Below, one piece after another: positions 2,679 through 37,720 of a DNA stretch of 37,720 nt. Made by a program: the position numbers and the translations under genes. Source of the stretch: a virus; IMG/VR virus record IMGVR_UViG_3300018411_000048, one strand, 5' to 3'. A model generated the notes under the pieces. The model was given only the letters and a program-made list of their open reading frames with translations. It did not search any database and was not told where the DNA came from. Position 1 is the stretch's first letter. Each line of letters starts with the position of its first letter.

Positions 2679-3014
2679 TTATTTTTTGTACTTTTCAATA
2701 AATTCTAAAATAGCTTTGTTTACTATGTCCTGTGCTTTGTATTCTCTGTATTCCTCAGTAAAATCATTTAAAGCTTCTCTAACATTTTCGTATAATCGGT
2801 AACTTCTAGACTGGGTATCTCCAATAAAATCTCTACAATCAATTTTAAGTCGCTTCGAATCTGAATCAACTTTTGCGGAAAGCTTTGCTGTGCCTTCTTC
2901 CAGCTCCTGCAATAGCTTCTTATACCAATAATTTTTAGTATACTGATACCTTTTATCTTTGTTTGCCTTGTTCCACTTACTCAAATATTCTTTACGCTCT
3001 TCGTATGTTTGCAT
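2679..3014 (-). CDS. Hypothetical protein
   Basis: 111-aa ORF in the operon, abutting the neighbouring genes. Confidence 0.6.
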   Translation of the reverse strand: MQTYEERKEYLSKWNKANKDKRYQYTKNYWYKKLLQELEEGTAKLSAKVDSDSKRLKIDCRDFIGDTQSRSYRLYENVREALNDFTEEYREYKAQDIVNKAILEFIEKYKK

Positions 3015-3379
3015 TATTCTTCAACCTCCATCACTCTTATTATTATTTGTTCGCCCTCATCGTGAAATCTTTGAATCAAGCCCTGGACGTACTTCCTGCT
3101 GTCCTCGTGTATCAAATACCCTTTCATTCCGTCAACTATGAGCTTTGACAAATAACCATGATTATCTATGTCTAACCTACTATCGTAACTTATATCGATT
3201 ATCACAGGCACATCAAATATTCTCTTAGGCAGTTGCTCTACCAAACATTGATGTACTAAGTTGTGCCATTTATCTGCTTTCTTTTTTCTAATTGCCCAGT
3301 GTCCTCCTGCGTAAAGCTTATTAAGCCCTTCATTTCCAGTTACCTTATACGGGATTCTAAATTCTGCTATCTGCTCCAC
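3014..3379 (-). CDS. RusA-like Holliday-junction resolvase (tentative)
   Basis: 121 aa. The DIDNHGYLSKLIVDGM segment resembles the RusA D.DN..K...D motif. It sits in a recombination/replication context. Confidence 0.5.
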   Translation of the reverse strand: MEQIAEFRIPYKVTGNEGLNKLYAGGHWAIRKKKADKWHNLVHQCLVEQLPKRIFDVPVIIDISYDSRLDIDNHGYLSKLIVDGMKGYLIHEDSRKYVQGLIQRFHDEGEQIIIRVMEVEE

Positions 3380-3803
3380 CTCCTACATATTGCCCATAAC
3401 TGAGGCCTTTTCTTCTTGCCTCGGCTTCAACTTCCCAAAGTTTTTTAGGTTCGCTTTTCTTTTTGACCTCCCTTTCAAGTTTCGGGTTCAAAACCCTGTG
3501 ATATCTTGATTGCACTGTAAACTTACCTATGTTCATTATCTCAGCTATATCAGCCCAGCTATGTCCAGATTGTTTAAGAGATAGCAATATATTGTCTTTT
3601 TCCTCATTCCATTGACATATTATGTTGCCTCGCTTTTCAATTTTCCCCTCTGCTTTTAATTTCGCAGAAAATTTCTGGATAGTCCACTGACTTAAACCTA
3701 TTTTCCTACTTATCATTTCCAAAGACAGACCCTCATTGTATAGCCTTATAAAATCCTGCTCTTGTCGCTCAGTAATTTCAGTAGGCTTTTTCCCTCTAAT
3801 CAA
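3357..3803 (-). CDS. DNA-binding protein: N-terminal HTH plus a Myb/SANT-like domain
   Basis: 148 aa. HTH segment: LSLEMISRKIGLSQWTIQKF. Myb-like repeat: WNEEKDNILLSLKQSGHSWADIAEIMN.GKFTVQSRYHRVL. Confidence 0.55.
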   Translation of the reverse strand: MIRGKKPTEITERQEQDFIRLYNEGLSLEMISRKIGLSQWTIQKFSAKLKAEGKIEKRGNIICQWNEEKDNILLSLKQSGHSWADIAEIMNIGKFTVQSRYHRVLNPKLEREVKKKSEPKKLWEVEAEARRKGLSYGQYVGGGADSRI

Positions 3804-4594: not shown

Positions 4595-4907
4595 GTCATC
4601 CCAAAAGCAAGTGTCATCCCTATAGGGTTGACAGCCACAAGCTACTTATACCAATGATTAGAGCAGGTTTTTCAGTAGTGTCATCCCTAATCTGTGAAGG
4701 GGGTGTCTAAAATAACTATTTATTTTTTCTTTTTTGAGGAAAATTTAAAAACCTCTGGGTACCCTTAAAAGTGGGATGACAGGGATGACAGGGATGACAG
4801 TAGTATAATTATATATAAAGAATATAGTAATATTAATACTTACATAGATTTATTGTTAACAAAAAAACGTCATCCCTTAACATCAACTAGGGATGACAGG
4901 GATGACA
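4595..4907. repeat. Iteron array A (GGGATGAC/GTCATCCC cores) with an AT-rich centre; candidate replication origin
   Basis: Cores at 4595, 4613, 4625 (degenerate), 4680, 4773/4782/4791 (triple tandem), 4869 and 4890/4899. The array lies directly 3' of the initiator-type gene 4915..6789. Confidence 0.7.
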
Positions 4908-4914
4908 CTTTTAG

Positions 4915-6789
4915 TTAAAATGGACATTCTTCTAAAGGAACTTCTCTGAATTTTTCTTCACATATTGATTCTAAATTTATCTTGTAACAGGTCGCCCTTG
5001 CTCCGTTAATCCTTACGCCAGAATGAACGTTCTTTCCTCCGCTGCTAGGTATCAGATAGCCTTTATCTTTCCACTTATTAATTACTGCCTCTAAAGAGAA
5101 GCCACTACTGCTCAGAGCTTCCTTGATAGAAGTATTGATTATATATATTATATTTTCATCTGATTTATCTATTTTCCCGTATACTTGCTTTATCGGCTGC
5201 ATATCAGCACTCTCACCGCTAAAATATTGCCTGTTAATAGCTATCCAATCAACTAAGTAGCTGAAAGCCCTCTCACTAACATCGACGTCTGTATCATCCT
5301 TTAAATAACTAGATACATCAGATATTTTCAAAGGCTCGTCATTAAATATGTGTCTTGAAGCTATCCTATCTGCTAATAATATAAGTCCTAAACTCATAGC
5401 CTGCTTCTCTGTTGTTTTGCTATTCTTTATTAATTCGTTAAATATGCAAATATATTCTTCTTGTATAGTAGTTAGATCTATAGATTCCAGAAACTTTCTC
5501 CCAGCTAAACCATAATTCTCTTTTACAAAATTAACGACATCATTACCATTTTCTATAAGCTTATGACTACATTCTATCTCTATTACCCTGTTCTTGGTCC
5601 CGCCACCACTGTTATTAGTAGTGCAAGGCTCTTCTCCTGTAAATAGGAAATTACAGTGCCAACGTTTCAACTCTCTATTGACGTGTCCATCCATTCTGCC
5701 CCTGTCTACTCCTTCAGTGATGGCCATAATTAAGTTGTCATAGTTGGACCATCTACTTTTTATTATCTGAAGCTCATCACCTGCGAAGGGTAGATTGTGC
5801 AAGAAGCTTGCAGTAGTCATCATAGAGTTTTGAGTCATGTTCATCGTTCTGACTAGTTTCCCCATGCTAGGATTTCCCCATACGCTCATAGAAGCCATAA
5901 GAGCAACCGTTTTTCCTGCCCCTGTGCCTCCCCATAAGTGAAAAACAAAAGGTAAGGAATTAGTTAGCTCTATAAGAGGACTTGAAAAACTTGCAGCTAA
6001 TTGCATCCTAAAAAGCTTATTTTTCCTTAAATTATTAAAATAATCTACCCAATTTTCCAAAGTTCCACTCGTATCTATCGCTTCAAATAAATGTTTGTTT
6101 TCCTTTTCACCGTCAAACACAAAAGTATCAGTAAAAGGAATAAATTCGCCCTTGTGCCAACCCACTCTACTAATAGAGTTTTCTGGCTCTATCTTGTATA
6201 TATTACAGGCTAAAAATTCACTTAAAAATATAACCAATTCCCTTGCGTTTTCACTAGTTACCATTATGCCGCTGTTTCTTAATTTTGTTATGCTTCTACT
6301 ATTAGATACCGTTTCTGCTTCTACTACTAGACTCTTAGGTCTAAATCTATCTATAAAAGTTATCTTGTTCTTTTCTTCTCCACTGTCTATGTTAATATAT
6401 CTCGATTCTATAAACACAACCTGGGGGCATATCTGCTCGAATGTCAATGTAGCTTCATTGAATTTGCTTATTCCAAAATTAGGCTCCATCCTGTAACCTC
6501 TTGGAATTGTAAGGGCCGGTAAACCTAAGAAGTTAATTGTCTGTTCATCGTTGACACCTTCAGCATTCTTAATGTAATTACTTCTAGCCTCTTGAAATCT
6601 TTTCTTAAATTCCCTTGCGGCTCCTGCTATCTGTGCCTTTATTTCTAAATCTTTCAAATGCCTAAAGGCTTCCATTTCTCCATTTTTCCAAATTTCTCTG
6701 TATAAAGCATCAGATGAAAAATGTATCTTGTTTTCTGGAATCTTTAAAGACTTGTCATCTAAATCAAGTATTTTTTCTAAAAGTCCCAA
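4915..6789 (-). CDS. Replication initiator-type P-loop primase/helicase (DUF927 or phage/plasmid primase C-terminal-like)
   Basis: 624 aa. Walker A is HLWGGTGAGKTVAL. It follows a CHC2 zinc-finger gene and precedes the iteron array. Confidence 0.65.
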   Translation of the reverse strand: MGLLEKILDLDDKSLKIPENKIHFSSDALYREIWKNGEMEAFRHLKDLEIKAQIAGAAREFKKRFQEARSNYIKNAEGVNDEQTINFLGLPALTIPRGYRMEPNFGISKFNEATLTFEQICPQVVFIESRYINIDSGEEKNKITFIDRFRPKSLVVEAETVSNSRSITKLRNSGIMVTSENARELVIFLSEFLACNIYKIEPENSISRVGWHKGEFIPFTDTFVFDGEKENKHLFEAIDTSGTLENWVDYFNNLRKNKLFRMQLAASFSSPLIELTNSLPFVFHLWGGTGAGKTVALMASMSVWGNPSMGKLVRTMNMTQNSMMTTASFLHNLPFAGDELQIIKSRWSNYDNLIMAITEGVDRGRMDGHVNRELKRWHCNFLFTGEEPCTTNNSGGGTKNRVIEIECSHKLIENGNDVVNFVKENYGLAGRKFLESIDLTTIQEEYICIFNELIKNSKTTEKQAMSLGLILLADRIASRHIFNDEPLKISDVSSYLKDDTDVDVSERAFSYLVDWIAINRQYFSGESADMQPIKQVYGKIDKSDENIIYIINTSIKEALSSSGFSLEAVINKWKDKGYLIPSSGGKNVHSGVRINGARATCYKINLESICEEKFREVPLEECPF

Positions 6790-7250
6790 TTTTCTTCGCT
6801 CCTCCCTAGTAATTCAACATAACCGTCCTTCTTTGCTTCCAATTCCTTTATGTCTAGCTCTAAAGCTTTAATATCTACCATATCACTTTTTTTGAAATTA
6901 TGCAGTATATTAATCTCTCTATCTAAATCTTTAATTAATCTTTTATAATTAATCTTTTTAACTGATTTATTGCTATATTCATATTGTATATTTCCTATAT
7001 CGCATAGCTTTTTTATAACTTCAACAAATTCTAAATTTTCATACATCATTACAAAATCTATTACATTTATACTTTTTCCCATGCAGGACCAACATCTTAT
7101 CAAATCATCTTTTATAGTCATGCTAGGGTTCCTGTCATTGTGAAAAGGACATTTGTATTTAAACCTACTTCCTTCTATACCGTAATAGTTCATTAAATCA
7201 GTAGGAGCAACCTTGCTAATAATCTCTTGTTTTAATGCTACAAAATCCAT
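6777..7250 (-). CDS. CHC2 (DnaG-type) zinc-finger protein
   Basis: 157 aa. Contains CPFHNDRNPSM...CWSC, the CHC2 primase zinc-finger signature. Confidence 0.7.
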   Translation of the reverse strand: MDFVALKQEIISKVAPTDLMNYYGIEGSRFKYKCPFHNDRNPSMTIKDDLIRCWSCMGKSINVIDFVMMYENLEFVEVIKKLCDIGNIQYEYSNKSVKKINYKRLIKDLDREINILHNFKKSDMVDIKALELDIKELEAKKDGYVELLGRSEENWDF

Positions 7251-7259
7251 AAATACCCC

Positions 7260-8621
7260 CTATATGTTATCATTGCCTTTATATATTTTGTATCTGCTAT
7301 ACCACATAGTTGTGAAAATACCTTCGCTGTCTACTATATCATATACTACAGGACTTGTTTTTCCTTCGAACTGTCTTTCTATTCTCCCTACAGATTGTAT
7401 AACCGTTGCTTTATCTTTTTTAGGAGTTGCAAGCACTAAACAATCAAGGCATGGAATGTCTAATCCTTCCTTGGCTAATCCATAACTGGCGAACAATATC
7501 CTTTCCTTTCCGTCCCTCATGGCTTGGATTATATCTTCTCTTTCTTGCTTCTGTGCTTTGGAAATCATTTTTCCATGTATCATAGCACCCTCGCCAACTA
7601 ATTCCTTTAAGCTTTCTAGCTGGTCCAACCTGTCAGATAAGACTAGTACGCTTTTATCCTTAGGAATGTCTTTTATTATATCAGATATATATATATTTCT
7701 TTCCTTGTTGTGTCCTAAATAATTTAAAGCCTTAGCAAATACAATGCTTCCATCATCCTTGTAACAGTAGCTTGGTAGCTTTATATTGTAGTTTTCCTTT
7801 CTAACTGTAGCCTTGCAGGTTTTAACAACAGACTTGTCTATTTCGATTAAAATATCACCTAACACTGAAAACATAGCAATTTCAGTGCCTTTCATATTCC
7901 TGTATGGTGTAGCTGTTAACCCTATCTTATATCTAGCATTTAAGCTATTAGCAATCTTATAAAACATTCCTAATTTTGTTATGCTTCCTGTCAACCTGTG
8001 GCACTCGTCAACAATTACAAGGTCAAACATATCTTCATATTCTTCCAAATCTTTATTGGATAAAGTTTGCACTAATGCGAATGTTATATCTTCTCCTATT
8101 TCAACCTTACCAGCCACTATTTTCCCTAAATCTGCACCCCTTAAATTATCTTTTGCTCTATTATATGATTGTTTTAATAAGTCTATTGTATGAGTAAGCC
8201 ATAAAGTCTTAACTCCCAACCTTGCTATTAATTCAAGTGCAGTTTGCGTTTTTCCGCTACCTGCTGGCATAACTATAATCCCATTAGAATCCTTAAATAT
8301 AACTTCATCTACTACTTGTTGTTGATAATCATATAATCTTATAGTAGAATTATACTTAACAGGGAATCTTATTTCTCTCAAATCCCTTACTTCTGGATTA
8401 AAACGCTTTATTAGTTTGCCAAGCATCCCAGCAGGCACAAATAGAGCGTCTTTTTCTTGCCTAAATAGCTTTAATTCCTTTGGTGTATTCCAATTAGAAA
8501 ACCCCATTTTTTCATTTTGATAATACTGCGGGTTTTCAATAGTCAGCATCCTAGCAATTTCATTTGCTTCCTGTAGGCTGTAACTGGTAATCCCTATTTC
8601 GTGCCTAACCCATAAAATCAT
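7260..8621 (-). CDS. Superfamily-2 DEAD/DEAH-box helicase
   Basis: 453 aa. Walker A is MPAGSGKT, motif II is VDECH, and a helicase C-terminal region follows. Confidence 0.8.
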   Translation of the reverse strand: MILWVRHEIGITSYSLQEANEIARMLTIENPQYYQNEKMGFSNWNTPKELKLFRQEKDALFVPAGMLGKLIKRFNPEVRDLREIRFPVKYNSTIRLYDYQQQVVDEVIFKDSNGIIVMPAGSGKTQTALELIARLGVKTLWLTHTIDLLKQSYNRAKDNLRGADLGKIVAGKVEIGEDITFALVQTLSNKDLEEYEDMFDLVIVDECHRLTGSITKLGMFYKIANSLNARYKIGLTATPYRNMKGTEIAMFSVLGDILIEIDKSVVKTCKATVRKENYNIKLPSYCYKDDGSIVFAKALNYLGHNKERNIYISDIIKDIPKDKSVLVLSDRLDQLESLKELVGEGAMIHGKMISKAQKQEREDIIQAMRDGKERILFASYGLAKEGLDIPCLDCLVLATPKKDKATVIQSVGRIERQFEGKTSPVVYDIVDSEGIFTTMWYSRYKIYKGNDNI

Positions 8622-8791
8622 TATTTCCCCTCCTTGTAATTTTCTTTAATCCATTTAAATACTTCTTCCTTATCAAATCTTATAGTGCCTGTAACAAGTC
8701 TGATAGAAGGCATCCCCATATCTCTGTAACGGTCAATAGTTCTAAGAGAAACCCCTATAACTTCTGCTAATTGCTTTCTACTTAACAACAT
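8621..8791 (-). CDS. Small MerR/excisionase-type HTH protein, 56 aa; not in the ORF track
   Basis: Hand translation: MLLSRKQLAEVIGVSLRTIDRYRDMGMPSIRLVTGTIRFDKEEVFKWIKENYKEGK. RBS AAAGGAGGTG. TAATG overlap with the helicase start. Confidence 0.65.
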   Translation of the reverse strand: MLLSRKQLAEVIGVSLRTIDRYRDMGMPSIRLVTGTIRFDKEEVFKWIKENYKEGK

Positions 8792-9499: not shown

Positions 9500-10402
9500 T
9501 TATTTCTTTATAAAATACTGTATATCATATTCTTTCATGTACGATTCTAATGCTTTTATTTTATTGTCAGTAGTTTTAACTTTAATGTAATATATATCTT
9601 CTTTTTCTTCCTTTGAATCTTCAACAGGTACAAACTTTTGAACATCCTCAACAACCTTAGATATTGTTTCCGCTGCTTTTTGATTTGCCTTTTCTTCCTC
9701 TTGTCTCTTGATTCTTTCAATTGCTTCTTTTTCTCTTTCTGCTGCTCGTTTAGCAGATTCTTCTATTTTTATCTTAGCTGCTGCTACCTCTAAGTGTAAA
9801 AAGTTGTTAAAATCTAGCTCTACTGATAAGTTGTTTTTAATGTTGTGCATTTCGCATATAGTCTTTATTGTTTCAACCTTGTTTTCATAATCAGACTTTT
9901 GCTTAAAAAGCTCCACAAATTGCTGCTCTAAATCTTCCTTTATTGCTTTAATGCTTTCAGTTTTATTGAGATACTTCTCTTTAAATTCTATTTTATTGGT
10001 GTATTCTGCTTCAAGTCCTGCATCTTGCTTCATTTCTGATATTAAGGTTAATACTTCTTGTTTTTTAGCTTCTTTCCTTTTTTCTTCAAAGCCCTCATAC
10101 TGCAATTTTAACGGCTTGTAAACTTCATCTACTTTAGATACTAAAGCTTTACATTTTGCTTCAAATTCTTTTATAGGTTTTTCCATTTCCTTTTTATGTT
10201 TCTTTCTAAAATCTTCCACATTCTTCGATAATTTGTTCAAATCTGCTAATGTGTCTTTTGCAAAGGCTAAATCAGCTTCCTGTATTACCCAACCTTTCAT
10301 GTCACCTATAAGACCTTCAAGATACTGTTCTGCTTGCTTATAATTAAAATCAATCTGTGCTTCCACCTTATTAGTTATTACCATTTCTGTGTTATTTGTC
10401 AT
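9500..10402 (-). CDS. DUF1351-like recombination-module protein
   Basis: 300 aa, coiled-coil rich. Its position next to the annealase gene is typical of DUF1351 in Firmicutes phages (recollection). Confidence 0.5.
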   Translation of the reverse strand: MTNNTEMVITNKVEAQIDFNYKQAEQYLEGLIGDMKGWVIQEADLAFAKDTLADLNKLSKNVEDFRKKHKKEMEKPIKEFEAKCKALVSKVDEVYKPLKLQYEGFEEKRKEAKKQEVLTLISEMKQDAGLEAEYTNKIEFKEKYLNKTESIKAIKEDLEQQFVELFKQKSDYENKVETIKTICEMHNIKNNLSVELDFNNFLHLEVAAAKIKIEESAKRAAEREKEAIERIKRQEEEKANQKAAETISKVVEDVQKFVPVEDSKEEKEDIYYIKVKTTDNKIKALESYMKEYDIQYFIKK

Positions 10403-10423: not shown

Positions 10424-10582
10424 TTATTTGACGACTCTACCACGATTATATTTTCTAGTGTGATCTATGCTTTTCTTGTAATTGTTGTAAAAATAATTAT
10501 CTACTTGCGTTTTCACCTCCCACTTCTTTTGACGTTGCTTTTCTAGTAATTTTCTTGTAAATTCTTCCTTACTCAGCTTCAT
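10424..10582 (-). CDS. Small basic protein, 52 aa; not in the ORF track
   Basis: Hand translation: MKLSKEEFTRKLLEKQRQKKWEVKTQVDNYFYNNYKKSIDHTRKYNRGRVVK. ATGA overlap with the ERF stop codon. Confidence 0.5.
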   Translation of the reverse strand: MKLSKEEFTRKLLEKQRQKKWEVKTQVDNYFYNNYKKSIDHTRKYNRGRVVK

Positions 10583-11184
10583 TTCTTATCTTCCAATTTC
10601 TCATAACCTGCAACCGCTTCATCATATTCTTTTTTTGTTAAATCTGCCACGCTTATTTTGTTATATTTCTTTGCTATGTGAGTCTTAACATCTGCTGTTG
10701 TGTAGCCTTTTTTGCCTGCTATAGTATAAAGCCTTTTAACCTGTGCTTCTGATAATCCTGTGCTTTCTTTCTCTGCATGCTGCTTTGCTCCATGTGTGTT
10801 AGTTGAATCTGAATCTTTAGTATCATCTATTGCAAACATTCCATTAAGTGCGTATTTTCTAGCGTAACTTGATGAAGCCCCTGTTACCTGCGAACCGTCC
10901 ATTCCTTTTTTATTCTCCTCTTCTCTCGCAAATCCTTCTACTTCGTGTTTTTCGCCTGTTTCAGTGTCTATTACTGTTACAGTAGCCTTTATATAGTAAC
11001 GCTCACCTATTAGCTTCAAATCATCTGTAATAGTCATTAAAAGACCTTCTTCTTTCAGCAATGGCTTAACTGCTTCAACTATATCTTCGCAACTTCTGTA
11101 TTTGTACTTTCCAAAACTGTTAAACTGTCCCTTTGGAGCTTTAAGTTCCGATTGTACATTTAAAAGCTTTTTAAATAAATTCAT
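10579..11184 (-). CDS. ERF-family single-strand annealing protein
   Basis: KYKYRSCEDIVEAVKPLL and GASSSYARKYALNGMF match ERF motifs as I recall them. The start is taken at MNLFKK, which follows RBS GGGAGG. Confidence 0.7.
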   Translation of the reverse strand: MNLFKKLLNVQSELKAPKGQFNSFGKYKYRSCEDIVEAVKPLLKEEGLLMTITDDLKLIGERYYIKATVTVIDTETGEKHEVEGFAREEENKKGMDGSQVTGASSSYARKYALNGMFAIDDTKDSDSTNTHGAKQHAEKESTGLSEAQVKRLYTIAGKKGYTTADVKTHIAKKYNKISVADLTKKEYDEAVAGYEKLEDKK

Positions 11185-11216
11185 TTGCTTACCTCCCTGC
11201 AATTTTTAAAAATAAA

Positions 11217-11411
11217 TTACTTTAAATTTTGTAGTGCAGAATCAATTACTTTGAATTCTGAAATGTAAAACCCATAATGTCCATGGGTTTTATCTCCTTT
11301 AATATTTTCAATTACCTTTTCTGCCTTTTCTTTTTCAAGAAAAGTTCCTAAAATAACTTCGTATGCATCGTCGTACTGTCCACCGTATGCTACTGCTTGA
11401 TATACTTTCAT
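11217..11411 (-). CDS. Hypothetical protein; first gene of the long early transcription unit
   Basis: 64 aa counted from MKVYQAV. RBS CAGGGAGGTAGTGAA-ATG. Confidence 0.55.
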   Translation of the reverse strand: MKVYQAVAYGGQYDDAYEVILGTFLEKEKAEKVIENIKGDKTHGHYGFYISEFKVIDSALQNLK

Positions 11412-11475
11412 TTCACTACCTCCCTGTTTTTGTTTTACTTGCTTAAATATAGTATAAAGCTTTATCACAGATAAA

Positions 11476-11497
11476 TAGTTACAAAATAGTTACAAAA
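11476..11497 (-). promoter_or_regulatory. Tandem TTTTGTAACTA x2 operator/promoter element at the head of the early unit
   Basis: Exact tandem 11-mers. A TATACT box follows at 11451..11456 (minus sense). Confidence 0.55.
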
Positions 11498-11504
11498 TAT
11501 AAAC

Positions 11505-11533
11505 TTGCAATTATTTCTTTTATATAGTATTAT
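11505..11533 (+). promoter_or_regulatory. Plus-strand promoter TTGCAA-17 nt-TATTAT for the tRNA
   Basis: Hexamers at 11505..11510 and 11528..11533. The tRNA begins 21 nt downstream. Confidence 0.5.
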
Positions 11534-11553
11534 TAGATTATAGATTTCCCTCT

Positions 11554-11629
11554 ATTGGTGTAGCTCAGTTGATAGAGCATCGGTCTCCAAAACCGAGTGT
11601 CGCAGGTTCGAATCCTGCCACCTTTGCCA
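11554..11629 (+). tRNA. trnW: tRNA-Trp (anticodon CCA)-like, with atypical acceptor stem and D-loop
   Basis: 76-nt cloverleaf. D stem is GCUC/GAGC, anticodon stem UCGGU/ACCGA, anticodon loop CUCCAAA, T arm GCAGG-UUCGAAU-CCUGC, and the CCA end is encoded. Two problems: U2-U71 and U3-U70 are mismatched, and the D-loop reads GA where GG18-19 is expected. Confidence 0.6.
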
Positions 11630-11659
11630 AATATTTGCTAATTTGTTGCCTCCCAGCAA

Positions 11660-11696
11660 TAAAAAAGAGCCTACTATATGTAGACTCTTTTTTTTA
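11660..11696. terminator. Bidirectional rho-independent terminator between the tRNA and the end of the lysis unit
   Basis: AAAAAA-AGAGCCUAC-UAUAU-GUAGACUCU-UUUUUUU. One internal mismatch, with an A-tract and a U-tract on either side. Confidence 0.7.
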
Positions 11697-11876
11697 CCCT
11701 TTATTCTGTTCATTTTCTTTAAAAGGAAGCCCCACCATTACGCCCAATAAAGCACCTAATAAGATTTCATTAAACTCTTTAGTTTCCCAAAACCCCCATG
11801 CAATAAAAAGTACTAAGGCTGCTAATACTATTAGCTGATAAATAACCCCATATCTAAAGTTTTCCGTTTGTTTCAT
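11694..11876 (-). CDS. Small two-TM membrane protein; holin candidate
   Basis: 60 aa with two hydrophobic segments. It lies immediately downstream of the endolysin. Confidence 0.5.
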   Translation of the reverse strand: MKQTENFRYGVIYQLIVLAALVLFIAWGFWETKEFNEILLGALLGVMVGLPFKENEQNKG

Positions 11877-25924: not shown

Positions 25925-26536
25925 CTATTTACGAGCCGCTGCTCTTAATTGCTGTGCAAGGGCTGGATTATCTTGCATAATCTTGCCTTGTTCAGTTAAA
26001 TTAAATGTTTCTTTACTCCACGGATTATAAGTTCCCACAGAGTCTCCTTTTTGGGGCGTCTTACCTTTCAATCTACTGTCAATCTCTCTTTGTATAGCTT
26101 CCTGCCACTCAGTTTGAAAAGAGTCAATATTCTTTAAAGTAGTTTCTGCATCTTGTGCCACTACATATTTCGTAAATTTCACGGGTAGTTTTCTTTCATC
26201 TAGTATCTTGCTAGCTTCAAGCTCTAACCTAGCTCTTTCAAACTCTTTTCTCTCAGCTTCAAACTTTTCTTTTTCCATCTGAAATAACTTTTCGGCCTTT
26301 TCTTTTTCAGATAACTTAGCTAATTCCTCAGCTTGTTTCTTCTCGGCTTCAATTTTCTCTGTCATTTCTTCTCTGAGCTTTTCTTCACGCTTCTTAATTG
26401 CTTCCGTTACCCTTCTATCTGTCTCTGATTGTAAACGCTTGTTAAATTCTTCTTCGGTAAAAGTCTTAACTTCTTCTGTCGTTTTTTCCTCTTGCTCTGT
26501 ATCTTCTGAGAATAATTGTAAATTCATGTCTAGCAT
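25925..26536 (-). CDS. Scaffolding protein (DUF4355-like)
   Basis: 203 aa. N-terminal MNLQLFSE followed by a long charged coiled coil. Confidence 0.7.
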   Translation of the reverse strand: MLDMNLQLFSEDTEQEEKTTEEVKTFTEEEFNKRLQSETDRRVTEAIKKREEKLREEMTEKIEAEKKQAEELAKLSEKEKAEKLFQMEKEKFEAERKEFERARLELEASKILDERKLPVKFTKYVVAQDAETTLKNIDSFQTEWQEAIQREIDSRLKGKTPQKGDSVGTYNPWSKETFNLTEQGKIMQDNPALAQQLRAAARK

Positions 26537-26593: not shown

Positions 26594-26623
26594 ATTATAC
26601 CACAAAATTCAAACATTTAACAA
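26594..26623 (-). promoter_or_regulatory. Promoter for the scaffold/capsid unit: TTGTTA-18 nt-TGgTATAAT (extended -10)
   Basis: Hexamers at 26618..26623 and 26594..26599, with the TG at 26601..26602. The leader contains a CUUGUAG/CUACAAG hairpin at 26552..26576. That hairpin carries TTGTAACTA. Confidence 0.55.
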
Positions 26624-26682: not shown

Positions 26683-26717
26683 CCTTTTCTCAATTATAAC
26701 TTATGCAATACTTAAAG

Positions 26718-26739
26718 TAATTACAAAATAGTTACAAAT
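26718..26739 (-). promoter_or_regulatory. Degenerate tandem (A/T)TTTGTAA(C/T)TA x2 element
   Basis: taattacaaaatagttacaaat. It is the counterpart of 4488..4509 but is followed only by a terminator, not by a gene. Confidence 0.45.
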
Positions 26740-26868
26740 ATACAAAGTTATCCACAAGTGTACGGATTTCTGACAGTGGCTAAATTGTTTGTAAAACAAG
26801 AATATTGTAATCGTTCTGTAGTATAAGAGCAGTTTTTGTAACACAATTGTAACATAAGGGCAAAAAGT

Positions 26869-27188
26869 GTCATACCTCAAGGGTGCGTCATACCACGTGG
26901 TATGACAACTGAGTGCATTGAAACTACTAGGGTTTAAGGCACTTTTTTGTAGTGTCATACCAAAATGTGCAAAGGGGGTGCATAAATTTATATTTATTTT
27001 TTCTTTTTTGAGCGAAATTCATTTTACTCTGACCACCCTCTACATCGGTATGACAGGTATGACGGTATGACAGTATATATATAATATTATTTATATTTAG
27101 TTATATCAATACTTCTAGGGTTTTCTCTACTAGAAAAAAGTGTCATACCAAAATTTTGCTGAGGTATGACAGGTATGACAGTATGATA
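26869..27188. repeat. Iteron array B (GGTATGAC/GTCATACC cores); orphan paralog of array A
   Basis: Cores at 26869, 26887, 26899, 26954, 27047/27056/27064, 27142 and 27163/27172, plus a degenerate GTATGATA at 27181. Spacing and orientation match array A to within 1 nt. Confidence 0.75.
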
Positions 27189-27207: not shown

Positions 27208-27233
27208 TAAAGAAAAGAGAGCCTAAGCTCTCT
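27208..27233 (-). terminator. Rho-independent terminator after 27232..27621
   Basis: AGAGAGC-UUAG-GCUCUCU followed by UUUCUUUAU. The stem overlaps the TAG stop codon. Confidence 0.6.
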
Positions 27234-27621
27234 ATTCTTCTTCTGCTACTTCTAGCTCTACTACAAAGTATCCCATTTCTTCATAGTCCGTGTCCTGTGG
27301 CTCCCAAGTAACTACTAGTTTAGTTTCAGCTGCTACTAAAACTTCCTTTTCTCCTTCGCATCCTGTTGCCCCAAGTATTTCAAGTTCTTCTTCGTTGCTG
27401 TAGTCTACATGGTGTACTGGCACGTTGTAAGCTTTTAACAGGTAAACGTATTGTCCTTTTGTTTCTGGTGTAAACTCTCCGCCTATGCTCCAGCTTTCTG
27501 CTTTGCCTAAGTTGTCATATATGCTATCTTCTGTAAAATCTAGCTCGTAATTGCTAGTTATAACTCTAGTTATTTCTTTCTCTGTACCTGTTATGTTTCT
27601 TGCTATATCATTCTTAGTCAT
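27232..27621 (-). CDS. Strongly acidic accessory protein of unknown function
   Basis: 129 aa, ending ...VVELEVAEEE. It has its own consensus promoter and its own terminator. Confidence 0.6.
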   Translation of the reverse strand: MTKNDIARNITGTEKEITRVITSNYELDFTEDSIYDNLGKAESWSIGGEFTPETKGQYVYLLKAYNVPVHHVDYSNEEELEILGATGCEGEKEVLVAAETKLVVTWEPQDTDYEEMGYFVVELEVAEEE

Positions 27622-27661
27622 TTTATTTTCCCCCTTAAATTTGTTAACCTTCTATAATTAT

Positions 27662-27690
27662 ATTATACACCTATTTAGTTACAAAGTCAA
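27662..27690 (-). promoter_or_regulatory. Consensus SigA promoter TTGACT-17 nt-TATAAT (P27)
   Basis: Hexamers at 27685..27690 and 27662..27667. The spacer contains TTGTAACTA (27676..27684). The 22-mer at 27650..27671 is identical to 28272..28293. Confidence 0.7.
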
Positions 27691-27697
27691 TAGCTTT

Positions 27698-27886
27698 TTA
27701 TAAGTTTTTTAATCTTTTTTCTAAATACTTTATACTTATTAGCCAAGTATTGCCCGATTTCCTTAAATACTCAACAGGTATTTGTTTTCTTACTACATAA
27801 ACTTTTAAAGTATTGTAATTTATTCCTAAAATGTCTGCTGCTTCTCTTAGCGTAATAGCAATGCCAAACTTTTTAATTTCTTCCAT
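27698..27886 (-). CDS. Excisionase/MerR-type HTH DNA-binding protein
   Basis: 62 aa. ITLREAADILGINYNTLKVYVVRKQIP is a typical HTH_17-like segment. Confidence 0.6.
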   Translation of the reverse strand: MEEIKKFGIAITLREAADILGINYNTLKVYVVRKQIPVEYLRKSGNTWLISIKYLEKRLKNL

Positions 27887-27898
27887 TAAAAATCCCTC

Positions 27899-28243
27899 CT
27901 AAAACATATCAATGTAAGTATCTTTAACAGCTATACCGTCTATTGTCATAGTGTAGTATAGTCTTGTTTTACCATAATTGCTCCAAAATTTAAAGTTAGT
28001 TCTTTCAACTAGCCCAGGGCCTTGAAGTTTGTTGTTTGTTGATAAATTGTTCCCGTTATATCTCTGTCTTACTTCTTTCTCGTTAGTTATCATTCTCTGT
28101 GCTTTTTCTGCATTTAGTTCAGAAGACATTTCAACTAGAAATTGAATATTAAGTCCAAGCTGCATTTGATAGTTGATTTCTGGATATTGCTTCTTCATTT
28201 CCTTAGTCATTTTGTGAGCTTCTTTCATTATATTCTTAGTCAT
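27899..28243 (-). CDS. Hypothetical accessory protein
   Basis: 114 aa. RBS AAAGGGAGGC. First gene after promoter P28. Confidence 0.55.
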   Translation of the reverse strand: MTKNIMKEAHKMTKEMKKQYPEINYQMQLGLNIQFLVEMSSELNAEKAQRMITNEKEVRQRYNGNNLSTNNKLQGPGLVERTNFKFWSNYGKTRLYYTMTIDGIAVKDTYIDMF

Positions 28244-28349: not shown

Positions 28350-28379
28350 AAAAAAGCAAGTACATTTGAAAGTACCTGC
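28350..28379 (-). terminator. Rho-independent terminator after the minor head gene
   Basis: GCAGGUAC-UUUCAAAU-GUACUUGC followed by UUUUUUAUU. Confidence 0.65.
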
Positions 28380-29284
28380 TATCTTATATCGTATGACAAT
28401 ACACATCTACAGTTAATATCCTCTGATGCTATACCGCTTAATTTAGGAGCAAATGTGGTATTTCCGCTAGGGAAAGTAAATAAATCATCGTACGGAATTA
28501 CTATATTGCTTAAAGCGTTGTGGCTGGAGCGTACTCTTTCATCTCTTGATGTTAGCCATTTTTTAGTAACATCAGCTTCTTTTGCTACCTCGTCCATGAT
28601 GTCTTTGTGTGCCTGCTGCATAACCCTTCCCGATTCTGTTCTAACTATTCTGGTAGGATTAATAACATCACCTTCTAAGCTATCTTTTAACCTCTTAGCC
28701 ATAGTTTTGTAAGTATCCCCTTGATAGAGTCCTTCTCTAACTGTACGCTCTACATTGTAAATTACATCTGCTCTGTGCTTATTCATCCTAGTAGCCCAGT
28801 TAAGACCTGCCATCTCTTCGTTAATAACTTTTGCAACGTCTAATTTCTTGACTATGCCATCAAAGTTGAGCCTAACACTCGGCAATGTATCTGTAGCACG
28901 TTTAACTGCGTTTATAGCACCGTTTGTATTGTAGCTGTATATTTCCCTTAAAGAACTGTTGATTTGCCTTCTATTCGCTAAATATAAGGTTGTAAGTGTA
29001 GCAGCTATTGTTTTCTCTAGCCTGCTTATTCTGTCATACTTGTTCATCTGTTCTAGAGTTAACTTTCCTTCTTCGTCTGAATACTTCTCGTATAGCATAG
29101 ATATTTCTTTTCTAAGCTCATTTAGAGCATCTCTGTAGCCTAACTGTATTCTTCTTTCATACTTCTTTATAAGCCTATTAGTCTGCTCTTCTAAGTTTAA
29201 AAAGTCTTTGTCAATCGTCCTCACCACCTTCAACAAAGAAACCACAAGCCTCTTCGTTCTCGCATTCCGAATTATGCAAAGCAC
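28379..29284 (-). CDS. Head morphogenesis / minor head protein (SPP1 gp7, Mu F-like)
   Basis: About 300 aa. It follows the portal gene and ends ...NCRCVLSYDIR, which is typical of the family as I recall it. The start codon is uncertain: GTG at 29284 has no RBS, and GTG/TTG alternatives lie near 29215. Confidence 0.65.
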   Translation of the reverse strand: MLCIIRNARTKRLVVSLLKVVRTIDKDFLNLEEQTNRLIKKYERRIQLGYRDALNELRKEISMLYEKYSDEEGKLTLEQMNKYDRISRLEKTIAATLTTLYLANRRQINSSLREIYSYNTNGAINAVKRATDTLPSVRLNFDGIVKKLDVAKVINEEMAGLNWATRMNKHRADVIYNVERTVREGLYQGDTYKTMAKRLKDSLEGDVINPTRIVRTESGRVMQQAHKDIMDEVAKEADVTKKWLTSRDERVRSSHNALSNIVIPYDDLFTFPSGNTTFAPKLSGIASEDINCRCVLSYDIR

Positions 29285-32942: not shown

Positions 32943-33578
32943 CTACCCCTGTATAAGCTTTCTTTTTCTCCTGTAATAATCTTGTAACATCTTCTTTCTG
33001 TCTTGATAATCTGGTATTGCAAGTACAAAGCCTGTATCTATTCTTTGAAGCTCTAAAATGTCGCTTAATTGCTGTGCCGTCAAATGCTCTCTAAGTGATT
33101 CATTTTCTGGAATACCATGTTCTTGTTTGTATTGCTTAGCCGTCATTCCTAATACTATCTTGTTTAACATATTCATTTCATTTGAATAATGATAGTGTTG
33201 TGGGTTTTCATGGCTTGCCTGTATGTTATCGGTTAATGCAGGAAATTCAAGTTTCGCCAACGCTCTTGAAGTAAGCAATCTTTCCATTTCGTTAAACTTG
33301 GCAATATATAATTCCTTAAATCTTACTGCTTCTGCTCCAGTGAATCCCATAGCTACCATAGTAAAACCATCTCTAGTAAGGTTATAACATGGGTATTGCT
33401 TGCCCCTGTCTTTATAAGTTGACTCCTTAAAATTAAGGAGCCAAAAATCTTTACTGCACTTTCCCTCTAATTCTCTAATAGCCTGCAACACATTATCCCT
33501 TCTTTTACGGAAAACATCTGCCACTATATGGCTTTGTGCATAAATCTTGCCATTCTTACTTTCCACTAAATTATTCAT
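32943..33578 (-). CDS. Rha-family phage regulatory protein
   Basis: 211 aa. SHIVADVFRKRRDNVLQAIREL...YNLTRDGFTMVAMGFTGAEAVRFKELYIAKFNEME matches the Phage_pRha pattern. Confidence 0.7.
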   Translation of the reverse strand: MNNLVESKNGKIYAQSHIVADVFRKRRDNVLQAIRELEGKCSKDFWLLNFKESTYKDRGKQYPCYNLTRDGFTMVAMGFTGAEAVRFKELYIAKFNEMERLLTSRALAKLEFPALTDNIQASHENPQHYHYSNEMNMLNKIVLGMTAKQYKQEHGIPENESLREHLTAQQLSDILELQRIDTGFVLAIPDYQDRKKMLQDYYRRKRKLIQG

Positions 33579-33601
33579 AATATAACTCCTTTCTTGGGCG
33601 G

Positions 33602-33895
33602 TTAACCTTTTAACTTGAATGTTCCGCCAATAGCTTCATCTCTCATATCAAGCAACTTTTTTATAAAATCTGCTTTTCTTTCAACGTTATCTGGTGTGTT
33701 CTTCATAAACAAAACTATTAACATACACTGAGATTCATTTAAAATATAAACCTCTCTTGGTCTGCCACTTGCTATTTTAATCTTTTCAACTGCAAGTTCT
33801 CCAAAATCCTCAATATCTTTGCCATAGTTCCTAATAACATTAACAATAATTCTGTGTTCTATTCCTAAGCTTTCCGCTAACTCATAACTATTCAT
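33602..33895 (-). CDS. Short Rha-N-terminal-like HTH protein
   Basis: 97 aa. SYELAESLGIEHRIIVNVIRNY...LNESQCMLIVLFMKN. Confidence 0.5.
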   Translation of the reverse strand: MNSYELAESLGIEHRIIVNVIRNYGKDIEDFGELAVEKIKIASGRPREVYILNESQCMLIVLFMKNTPDNVERKADFIKKLLDMRDEAIGGTFKLKG

Positions 33896-33915
33896 TAACT
33901 CACCTCCTAATTAAT

Positions 33916-33944
33916 ATTATACAGTATAATGCAACAAACTGCAA
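33916..33944 (-). promoter_or_regulatory. Promoter TTGCAG-17 nt-TATAAT, with three upstream ATTGCA repeats
   Basis: Hexamers at 33939..33944 and 33916..33921. Confidence 0.55.
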
Positions 33945-33968
33945 TAAAATAATTCAATAAATTGCAAT

Positions 33969-33996
33969 AAAAAAAGAGAAGAAATTAATCTTCTCT
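33969..33996 (-). terminator. Rho-independent terminator overlapping the 3' end of 33985..34662
   Basis: AGAGAAG-AUUAAUUU-CUUCUCU followed by UUUUUUAUU. Confidence 0.6.
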
Positions 33997-34662
33997 CTCT
34001 TGCTCTATATACTTTTTAACCTCTGCGTAGACTTCTTTGTCATCATCAGTTAAATCTGTTCTCATTTCTATATAATAAGCTATTTTGCTTTCTAGCTCTT
34101 GCACCTGCTTTAATTCGTCTATAGTTAAGAAGTTTCTTATATTGTCTTTTTCTTTAAGTCCTCTTTGCTCCTTAGCCTTTTTAACTGTCATACCTAAAAC
34201 CTTTTTATAAACTAGCTTAGAGTAATTGCTATAAGCGAACCTCTTGAAATTACCTTCTTCTTTCACTTTATCTTTGATAGTGTCCGTTAATTCTTTTCTA
34301 ACTGACTTTCCTATATATCTAGTTTCTAACCTAGCTTTAAGCTCTTGCTCCATAAAATTAAAAGCTTTAATATATTTGAGTTTCCACTCTAAAGCAGTTT
34401 TATTGTTAAACCCCATAGCTAAAAGAGAGAATCCATCTCGATTCATTAAATATTCTTTTCTTGATTCGCCTTTTTTATCCTTGTACTCAGACAAAACAAA
34501 CCACTTTAACGAACGCACTTCTACGTTGGTTGAAATTATGTTTTCAATAGCACGTATTACATCTGAATGCCTTTTCTTGAAGCTAACAGCAATATCCCTA
34601 CTACTACAAACGGGTGAAGCATTGTTAACATCATTAGTGCTTAGTCTTACTAGTTCATTCAT
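33985..34662 (-). CDS. Rha-family phage regulatory protein with a C-terminal extension
   Basis: 225 aa. SSRDIAVSFKKRHSDVIRAIENI...YLMNRDGFSLLAMGFNNKTALEWKLKYIKAFNFME. Confidence 0.7.
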   Translation of the reverse strand: MNELVRLSTNDVNNASPVCSSRDIAVSFKKRHSDVIRAIENIISTNVEVRSLKWFVLSEYKDKKGESRKEYLMNRDGFSLLAMGFNNKTALEWKLKYIKAFNFMEQELKARLETRYIGKSVRKELTDTIKDKVKEEGNFKRFAYSNYSKLVYKKVLGMTVKKAKEQRGLKEKDNIRNFLTIDELKQVQELESKIAYYIEMRTDLTDDDKEVYAEVKKYIEQERED

Positions 34663-37488: not shown

Positions 37489-37675
37489 AAGCATATCCAC
37501 CTTTCCAAGACCTGTCTGCTTCGATATACTCCATCTTGGGTGTAATGCTACATTCTGGATTATCACATTTCCAATACATGAAATTATCATAATATCCCGT
37601 ATACTCAATAAGTTTCATTTTGGAACCGCAAGAGCATGTTGGTCTAAGTGACATTGGAGCTTTTCTTTTATTCAT
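37487..37675 (-). CDS. Zinc-ribbon small protein
   Basis: 62 aa: MNKRKAPMSLRPTCSCGSKMKLIEYTGYYDNFMYWKCDNPEC..., with CxC...CxxxxC. Its 5' part is duplicated at 1..78 by the terminal overlap. Confidence 0.6.
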   Translation of the reverse strand: MNKRKAPMSLRPTCSCGSKMKLIEYTGYYDNFMYWKCDNPECSITPKMEYIEADRSWKGGYA

Positions 37676-37720
37676 ATTAAACCCTCGCTTTCTCAACCTT
37701 TCAATGGTTATATTGCGTTA
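37598..37720. repeat. Second copy of the 123-bp terminal overlap
   Basis: Identical to 1..123. Confidence 0.95.

Follow-up and report, generated by a model that had tools for sequence, protein, structure and literature searches.

To our knowledge, a layout with two replication origins in one phage genome has been documented in detail only for SPP1. The oriR of this phage lies in the late region, between gene 7, which encodes a Mu-F-like protein, and gene 11, which encodes the scaffold, accompanied by three accessory genes and flanked by transcription signals (PMC6316719). In the SPP1 record, the repeat boxes that oriR has in common with oriL are located at about 4780–5000, after the terminator that follows gene 7 and before genes 8–10 and the scaffold gene 11; genes 38–40 are annotated as DnaD-like and DnaB-like. 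A different replicon is found in staphylococcal pathogenicity islands (SaPIs), where the origin lies directly 3' of rep, its six to twelve iterons flank an AT-rich region on both sides, and these iterons are read by the C-terminal winged helix of Rep (PMC9371898; PMC7581432). Here we describe two iteron arrays in the IMG/VR record IMGVR_UViG_3300018411_000048, a viral DNA of 37,720 nucleotides (nt) which we call the window and to whose whole length our coordinates refer. Array A follows the gene of a SaPI Rep-like helicase, array B is located among the head genes, and the arrangement is best regarded as a dual-origin layout in the style of SPP1, in a variant that uses a SaPI Rep-like replicon.

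The motif GGKATGAC is present 20 times in the window, where 1.0 occurrence is expected, and none of 100 shuffles reached this number. Array A contributes nine GGGATGAC cores, next to a degenerate tenth, GGGTTGAC, at 4625; array B contributes ten perfect GGTATGAC cores, and a single stray match is found at 34187. Measured from the first core, the offsets are 0/18/30/85/178/187/196/274/295/304 in A and 0/18/30/85/178/187/195/273/294/303 in B. The cores have the same orientation at every position and the arrays are collinear to within 1 nt, the sole shift in phasing being one spacing of 8 nt, instead of 9 nt, inside the direct triple of B. Both arrays have their iterons in two sets around an AT-rich stretch, with copies of opposite orientation on each side; in B this stretch, roughly 70 base pairs (bp) long, has been retained together with the two-sided layout. 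A 22-nt block, tatttattttttcttttttgag, is located at offset 122 in both arrays (4717–4738 in A), preceded in each case by aagggggtg. A and B share 54% identity in the sequence between the iterons, while the global identity over the whole arrays is 0.655, compared with 0.437 ± 0.027 for shuffled B, and the homology runs past the iterons into a tandem TAGTTACAAAA box. All ten B cores show the same one-base difference from A, G to T (C to A on the gene strand); they retain the GTCAT part and differ solely at position 6 of the 8-mer.

The core starts, offsets, orientations and phasing given in the initial annotation of this DNA were reproduced by a pattern count, and the T-rich block with its preceding motif, the largely diverged spacers and the concerted single-base difference described there are also confirmed. 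Judged from its sequence, array B is a genuine paralogue of A with the full origin architecture. As ten cores are perfect while identity to any known origin in the spacers is only about 54%, the B cores and their spacing have been under selection, either here or in a recent donor. Array B is not a recent in-situ copy of A, because of its spacer identity of 0.54 and because it branches outside the cluster formed by A and the origins of two close relatives, L064 and L188.

The gene next to array A encodes an initiator, a self-loading helicase with family scores of 5.5e-33 (PF06048) and 2.2e-20 (PF18662). Its structural matches are SaPI Rep (PDB 8tch, E=1e-26) and Cch of the staphylococcal cassette chromosome SCCmec (5dgk, E=4.5e-17), and it has the only HTH_56-type C-terminal domain of the complete genome. 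The first iteron of array A is 9 nt past the helicase stop codon, so that A indeed lies just 3' of an initiator-type gene, as first described. Primary origins were surveyed in 80 IMG/VR loci, sampled via an alignment of the helicase C-terminal domain: within 600 bp 3' of the gene, the dominant 7-mer has at least seven copies in 75 loci and at least five in 79. Close relatives, found separately from this survey, have an iteron array 3' of the helicase gene too. Because this position and layout are SaPI-like and are matched by the relatives, A is, as far as sequence comparison can tell, the primary origin, cognate to the adjacent DUF927/HTH_56 helicase.

Across the family, the iterons co-vary with the helicase lineage. 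Relatives L064 and L065, with helicases 91% identical to that of the window, have GTCATCCC and two GTCAGCCC; L188, with 88% identity, has six GTCATACG and three GTCATCCC in its primary origin (3005–3335). The iteron is GTCTAAC in L066, L189 and IMGVR_UViG_3300031485_000008 (R), whose helicases are 67–71% identical to that of the window, and GTCTTAC, GCTTAC, GCTAAC, GTCCCAC, GTTATCT or CCGTGACAG in more distant relatives of lower helicase identity. Most iteron groups conform to GTCnnAC, as do the GTCATAC of B and most of L188, whereas position 6 sets the GTCATCC of A apart. In L064 (6999–8321) and L065 (5378–6700), the genes after the origin include an IS605 OrfB/TnpB-type gene (Cas12f-like TNB domain) and a small ribbon-helix-helix (RHH) gene; the window contains neither a TnpB-type nor an RHH gene.

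Array B is not 3' of the initiator gene. It is about 22 kilobases (kb) from A, or about 15 kb when measured in the other direction of the circular genome, and lies between the minor-head and scaffold genes, bracketed by terminators, as the initial annotation had it. Three related uncultured phages (R, the L066 phage and L195) carry a second origin-type array in this Mu-F-to-scaffold slot. In R, of which the scaffold-to-capsid block has 82% nucleotide identity to the window, ten GTCTAAC copies are located at L057 9204–9493, between the Mu-F gene and the gene for a 129-amino acid (aa) protein, and the primary origin after the helicase gene (L316 668–975) also consists of GTCTAAC. There is no GGNATGAC array in the slot of R; the GTCTAAC array upstream of the 129-aa gene is present instead. 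The L066 phage has ten GTCTAAC copies at L401 11077–11393, in a Mu-F-to-scaffold gap that is otherwise gene-free. Their offsets, 0/10/32/119/128/137/232/285/298/316, are collinear within 1–2 nt with those of its primary origin at L066 11889–12207 (0/10/32/119/128/137/233/287/.../318); the phased duplication of the window thus recurs in this phage, with identical iterons. The slot array of L195 is 95% identical to that of R. A scan of IMG/VR with a Mu-F protein alignment, made for the survey of the slot, returned only R.

In both relatives for which the primary origin is known, R and the L066 phage, the primary and second iterons are identical. When only spacers are compared, each second array groups with the primary lineage of its own genome: identities are 0.65 between the two arrays of the L066 phage, 0.67 between those of R and 0.54–0.59 between B and the GTCAT group. 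The slot arrays occupy three different micro-positions. Own-lineage clustering and different micro-positions together indicate that second copies arose, or were homogenised, repeatedly, and the slot arrays normally carry the iteron of the resident initiator. Since the relatives carry their own primary iteron in the slot, array B is probably an array of the resident initiator as well. On balance, we favour the reading that B is a secondary copy of the origin in the late region, a functional analogue of SPP1 oriR with a different initiator, probably bound by the resident helicase.

This reading departs from the initial annotation, which regarded B as an orphan and stated that no phage with two such copies had been described. 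SPP1, with oriL and with oriR in the same slot (PMC6316719), provides a precedent, and the slot arrays of R and the L066 phage, sharing the iteron of their own primary origin, argue against an orphan as the default. What stands of the earlier interpretation is that A is origin-type and B its paralogue with full architecture; its links of B to a small helix-turn-helix (HTH) protein and to a DnaA box, dealt with below, do not.

The window and SPP1 resemble each other in several respects. Each siphophage genome has two copies of one origin architecture, consisting of repeats and an AT-rich unwinding element, of which the second is in the Mu-F-to-scaffold slot, along with three accessory genes and bracketing transcription signals. 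Both have an SPP1-type portal/Mu-F/scaffold/Gp13-like capsid module (SPP1_portal, Phage_Mu_F, DUF4355 scaffold and Gp13-like capsid in the window), a single-strand annealing protein and a Holliday-junction resolvase. The resemblance is one of analogy, not of homology between initiators: SPP1 uses the DnaD-like initiator G38P, the loader G39P and the DnaB-type helicase G40P, whereas the window has the DUF927/HTH_56 helicase. Moreover, oriL is inside gene 38 whereas array A is 3' of its gene, oriR precedes the accessory genes whereas B follows them, and both SPP1 origins share boxes bound by G38P whereas one base separates the ten B cores from A. With SaPI Rep and SCCmec Cch, the window shares a homologous helicase, an origin directly 3' of the gene and short iterons of opposite orientations on the two sides of an AT-rich region. 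However, the SaPI and Cch elements are satellites or cassettes in staphylococci, described with one origin and with iterons of 5–6 bp, while the window is a complete phage of an uncultured Clostridia or Tissierella-like host, with a second, distant origin copy and iterons of 8–9 bp.

Transposing the SaPI Rep mechanism to the window, the winged helix of the helicase would bind the iterons, phased at 9 bp, and two hexamers would assemble around the AT-rich stretch and melt the DNA. The resident helicase would bind B as well as A, and B would then either fire as a second origin or form a stable block of initiator and DNA. Such a block could stall forks coming from A; cutting of the stalled fork and restart by recombination would yield concatemers for headful packaging. 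For SPP1, a stalled fork followed by recombination-dependent synthesis of concatemers has been proposed (PMC3485210). The ERF-type annealing protein and the RusA-like resolvase of the window may form the toolkit for an SPP1-style restart after fork stalling. The uniform base difference would serve to tune affinity, or may remain from an earlier partner initiator. As there is a terminator before array B, and a terminator and promoter-like site after it, B is predicted to sit in a transcription-free island: the first terminator would shield it from upstream late transcription, and from the promoter-like site, transcription into the scaffold and capsid genes would resume. The GC skew is uniformly negative along the genome, without a turning point, and uninformative on origins.

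Several points weigh against array B being a second origin of the resident helicase. The role assigned to oriR in SPP1 is itself a model. Every one of the ten B cores departs from A, always at the same base; uniformity on each side suggests that the base at position 6 is read by the protein. In R and the L066 phage, unlike the window, the iterons of both arrays are identical. The spacer identity of B to A is below the 0.65–0.67 that the relatives show between second and primary arrays, B has another micro-position, after the 129-aa gene and not before it, and B may therefore have arrived from another GTCAT-type phage. The slots of L196 and L402 contain no such array, but other repeats instead, so the second array is not indispensable to the head module. 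Finally, in four cultured phages, whose DUF927 helicases are distant and whose head modules differ, the primary array is the only one.

A uniform one-base shift between the iterons of the two arrays is unusual. Nevertheless, L188, in which the C-terminal 190 residues of the helicase are 80% identical to those of the window, mixes GTCATACG and GTCATCCC in a single primary origin, and a recurrent one-mismatch variant of the iteron is present in 10 of 75 primary origins. Because of these two observations, we think it moderately probable that either A or C is accepted by the resident helicase at position 6. The L188 origin may be an evolutionary intermediate or a recombinant.

Apart from a second origin of the resident initiator, B may be a mismatched origin, acquired by module exchange from a relative that reads GTCATACC and not used by the resident helicase; it would work in trans only, fired by the initiator of a co-infecting phage or acting as a decoy that titrates it, or would await re-matching. 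This is possible, although we consider it the less probable course. It would explain why the base difference is uniform over ten cores and why B, outside the cluster of A, L064 and L188, is nearly equidistant from all known origins (0.50–0.59) and differs in micro-position from R, L195 and the L066 phage; that iterons co-vary with the helicase lineage implies that single positions can matter. However, the slot array of relatives normally matches the resident initiator, A and C variants coexist in one working-type origin (L188), and the matches listed in our scans of the collections include no helicase whose primary origin consists of GTCATACC. In these scans, viral and metagenome collections were searched by exact pattern for GGKATGACAGGKATGAC, GGTATGACAGGTATGAC and the GTCAT triple. 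The matches listed were mostly 9-nt coding repeats or unrelated elements, and none of them adjoined a relative of the helicase. Searches of array B against GenBank phages for near and distant nucleotide similarity gave no match. The phage is also present, 100% identical, in five other contigs from ENA (three), JGI (one) and Logan (one), and its recovery from several sources indicates that B is stably carried, a further point against a mismatched origin.

In a more specific and rather doubtful form, B is shifted in specificity, not used by the resident helicase, and matches the GTCATAC-type initiator of a competitor, such as is partly seen in L188. If this were true, B would hijack the initiator of the competitor in a mixed infection to replicate the genome that carries it, or soak it up; it would act as an origin decoy, or as a device for cross-firing, that occurs naturally within a phage, and the phage group would be one that repeatedly plants an origin copy in the Mu-F-to-scaffold slot. 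In the unrelated viral and metagenome contigs L044 (3890–4070), L016 (1060–1245) and L133 (1980–2300), whose GC content ranges from 25% to clearly GC-rich, we observed clusters of GGTATGAC or GGGATGAC in mixed orientation and phased at 9 bp; the one in L044 adjoins an open reading frame (ORF) of 819 aa. GTCAT-type iterons may be used by other initiators too.

It is improbable that B is an inert relic, a recently acquired or duplicated fragment of an origin that is now without function. The slots of L196 and L402 do lack an array and the slot is a hotspot of gene turnover, but an unselected copy would lose its cores as fast as its spacers, and in B all ten cores are perfect and spaced to within 1 nt while the spacers have fallen to about 54%; terminators also insulate it on both sides.

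The least probable explanation, for which we see very little room, is an array bound by the 62-aa HTH_17 protein or by a transcription regulator and controlling late transcription: the HTH_17 gene is 500 bp from B, B lies between a terminator and a late promoter, and the TAGTTACAAAA boxes next to both arrays resemble regulatory sites, but the slot array in relatives uses exactly the iteron of the initiator, an operator needs no full origin geometry with an AT-rich stretch, and the L401 array has no neighbouring small gene and the L195 array no HTH_17 homologue. The link between the adjacent 62-aa HTH protein and the array, suggested at first, is lost with these two relatives, although the protein itself was correctly recognised; in R its homologue is found on the other side of the 129-aa gene.

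The positions of the arrays and of the surrounding features are collected in Table 1.

Table 1. Elements of the two arrays, and genes and signals of the window (→, read on the minus strand in gene direction)
Feature	Position	Strand	Remarks
Array B	26869–27179		Ten perfect GGTATGAC/GTCATACC iterons; parts listed below in gene direction (minus)
B, direct pair	27179→27163		First in gene direction
B, inverted single	27142–27149
B, AT-rich stretch	~27072–27141
B, direct triple	27071→27047
B, A/T block	26991–27012		tatttattttttcttttttgag
B, inverted single	26954–26961
B, palindromic pair	26887–26906
B, inverted single	26869–26876		Last in gene direction
Array A	4595–4906		Nine GGGATGAC/GTCATCCC iterons and degenerate GGGTTGAC; order and spacing as in B; AT-rich at ~4799–4868
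Initiator, self-loading helicase	4915–6789	−	DUF927 AAA+ core and C-terminal HTH_56 (Cch-type winged helix)
DnaG-type CHC2 zinc-ribbon (primase-like) protein	6777–7250	−	Immediately upstream of the helicase gene
Mu-F-like minor head protein	28379–29284	−	SPP1 gp7 equivalent; upstream edge of slot
Three small accessory (moron-like) genes	27232–28243	−	Products of 114 aa (27899–28243), 62 aa, HTH_17 (27698–27886), and 129 aa (27232–27621)
Intrinsic terminator	27233→27216	−	After the 129-aa gene, ahead of B
Intrinsic terminator	26682→26660	−	GGGAGGGAUGGCACCCUCUUU, then a U-run; B and its TAGTTACAAAA box lie upstream
Promoter-like site	26594–26623	−	TTGTTA, 18-nt spacer, TATAAT, upstream TG (extended −10)
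Scaffolding protein (DUF4355)	25925–26536	−	Downstream edge of slot
Tandem TAGTTACAAAA-type box	26718–26739	+	Beside B; one mismatch per copy
Exact tandem TAGTTACAAAA	4488–4509		Beside A
Exact tandem TAGTTACAAAA	11476–11497
ERF-type single-strand annealing protein	10579–11202	−
RusA-like resolvase	3014–3379

In gene direction, array B follows the three accessory genes. Both A and B are followed by TTACAA-type boxes that end in the tandem TAGTTACAAAA, and such boxes also follow the slot arrays of R (L057 ~9560–9600), L195 and the L066 phage (L401 ~11450–11560). At all three sites in the window, the tandem TAGTTACAAAA box is just upstream of the start of an operon. The motif is probably separate from the iterons, an operator or promoter element for a regulator, which is possibly the 148-aa protein encoded at 3357–3803, with its two HTH motifs resembling sigma region 4.

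A perfect DnaA-box consensus, TTATCCACA, is present at 26748–26756, as noted initially, in a 24-nt insertion specific to B. It is a single exact 9-mer, of which 0.5 are expected by chance, and it is absent from nine related arrays even when one mismatch is allowed; we judge it to be probably a chance occurrence. An ORF of 85 aa (26701–26958, minus strand) was rejected as spurious, as it has no family match, its ATG is within an iteron and it has no counterpart in A. Between 26850 and 26660 no small RNA was recognised, the terminator hairpin being the only stable structure (z = −0.54) and Rfam giving no match.

The 129-aa gene was considered as a partner of the origin and rejected as a mobile accessory gene, since its homologues adjoin lysis genes in Tissierella-type prophages. 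Two homologues (L396 10001–11311 and L398 10001–11832; 78–79% identical) neighbour lysis and HNH genes where prophage-like regions end. Of these regions, one belongs to Tissierella praeacuta and one to a metagenome contig of 121 kb, which gives a hint of the host group. A paralogue of the HTH_17 gene in the replication module was likewise discarded: the 56-aa product of 8621–8791 is HTH_17-like but has no detectable similarity to the 62-aa protein.

In related phages, the slot harbours other families of repeats (L196 ~1180–1500, L402 ~11400–11750 and L057 ~9620–9900), namely direct repeats of the GTGAACAGCA type and pairs of GTGTTACCCC beside an AT-rich stretch; these may be an origin or a binding array for a different protein. 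The SPP1-type portal gene of L195 (2187–4486) and L402 (7618–9917) is split into parts of 330 and 115 aa by an insert with an ORF of 212 aa, which suggests insertion of an intron or homing endonuclease.

The first 123 bp of the window are repeated at its end (1–123 = 37598–37720); this terminal direct overlap shows the genome to be complete, with 37,597 bp in circular or circularly permuted form. Its protein genes are on the minus strand throughout, and no integrase was seen among the ORFs scanned. A tRNA-Trp (CCA) gene at 11554–11629 is on the opposite (plus) strand to all protein genes, in the gap between the lysis and early genes, and is followed by a bidirectional-looking terminator at about 11660–11690. 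Upstream of the terminase genes there are three consecutive genes with pRha (antirepressor-like) domains, encoding 225, 97 and 211 aa (32943–34662, minus strand). The host is probably an uncultured Clostridia or Tissierella-like bacterium.

Satellite phage P4 has a primase-helicase with a C-terminal DNA-binding domain and two iteron-bearing cis regions, ori and crr, several kb apart; its alpha protein is of a different helicase family, and crr is required in cis and has the same iteron as ori, while the second array of the window is missing in some relatives and its iteron differs by one base. Extra origin iterons can titrate an initiator, as in plasmid iteron control loci such as P1 incA and in the phage-encoded resistance (Per) systems of phages of lactic acid bacteria; a decoy role of B would rely on this mechanism. 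However, Per is a cloned origin on a plasmid and not a natural second copy, and loci of the incA type have no unwinding element, whereas B keeps an AT-rich stretch and the complete two-sided layout of an origin.

The layout and slot known from SPP1 thus recur in a group of uncultured phages that use an unrelated, SaPI Rep-like helicase. The three micro-positions of the slot arrays and their clustering with their own lineages suggest repeated selection for a second origin copy beside the head genes. The group would offer independent systems in which to study the fork-stalling model of the switch to concatemer synthesis, and the phage described here may be seen as a natural experiment, with two arrays of the same geometry, one initiator and one uniform base difference. 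Long, apparently empty gaps between the Mu-F and scaffold genes of such phages are worth checking for origin arrays.

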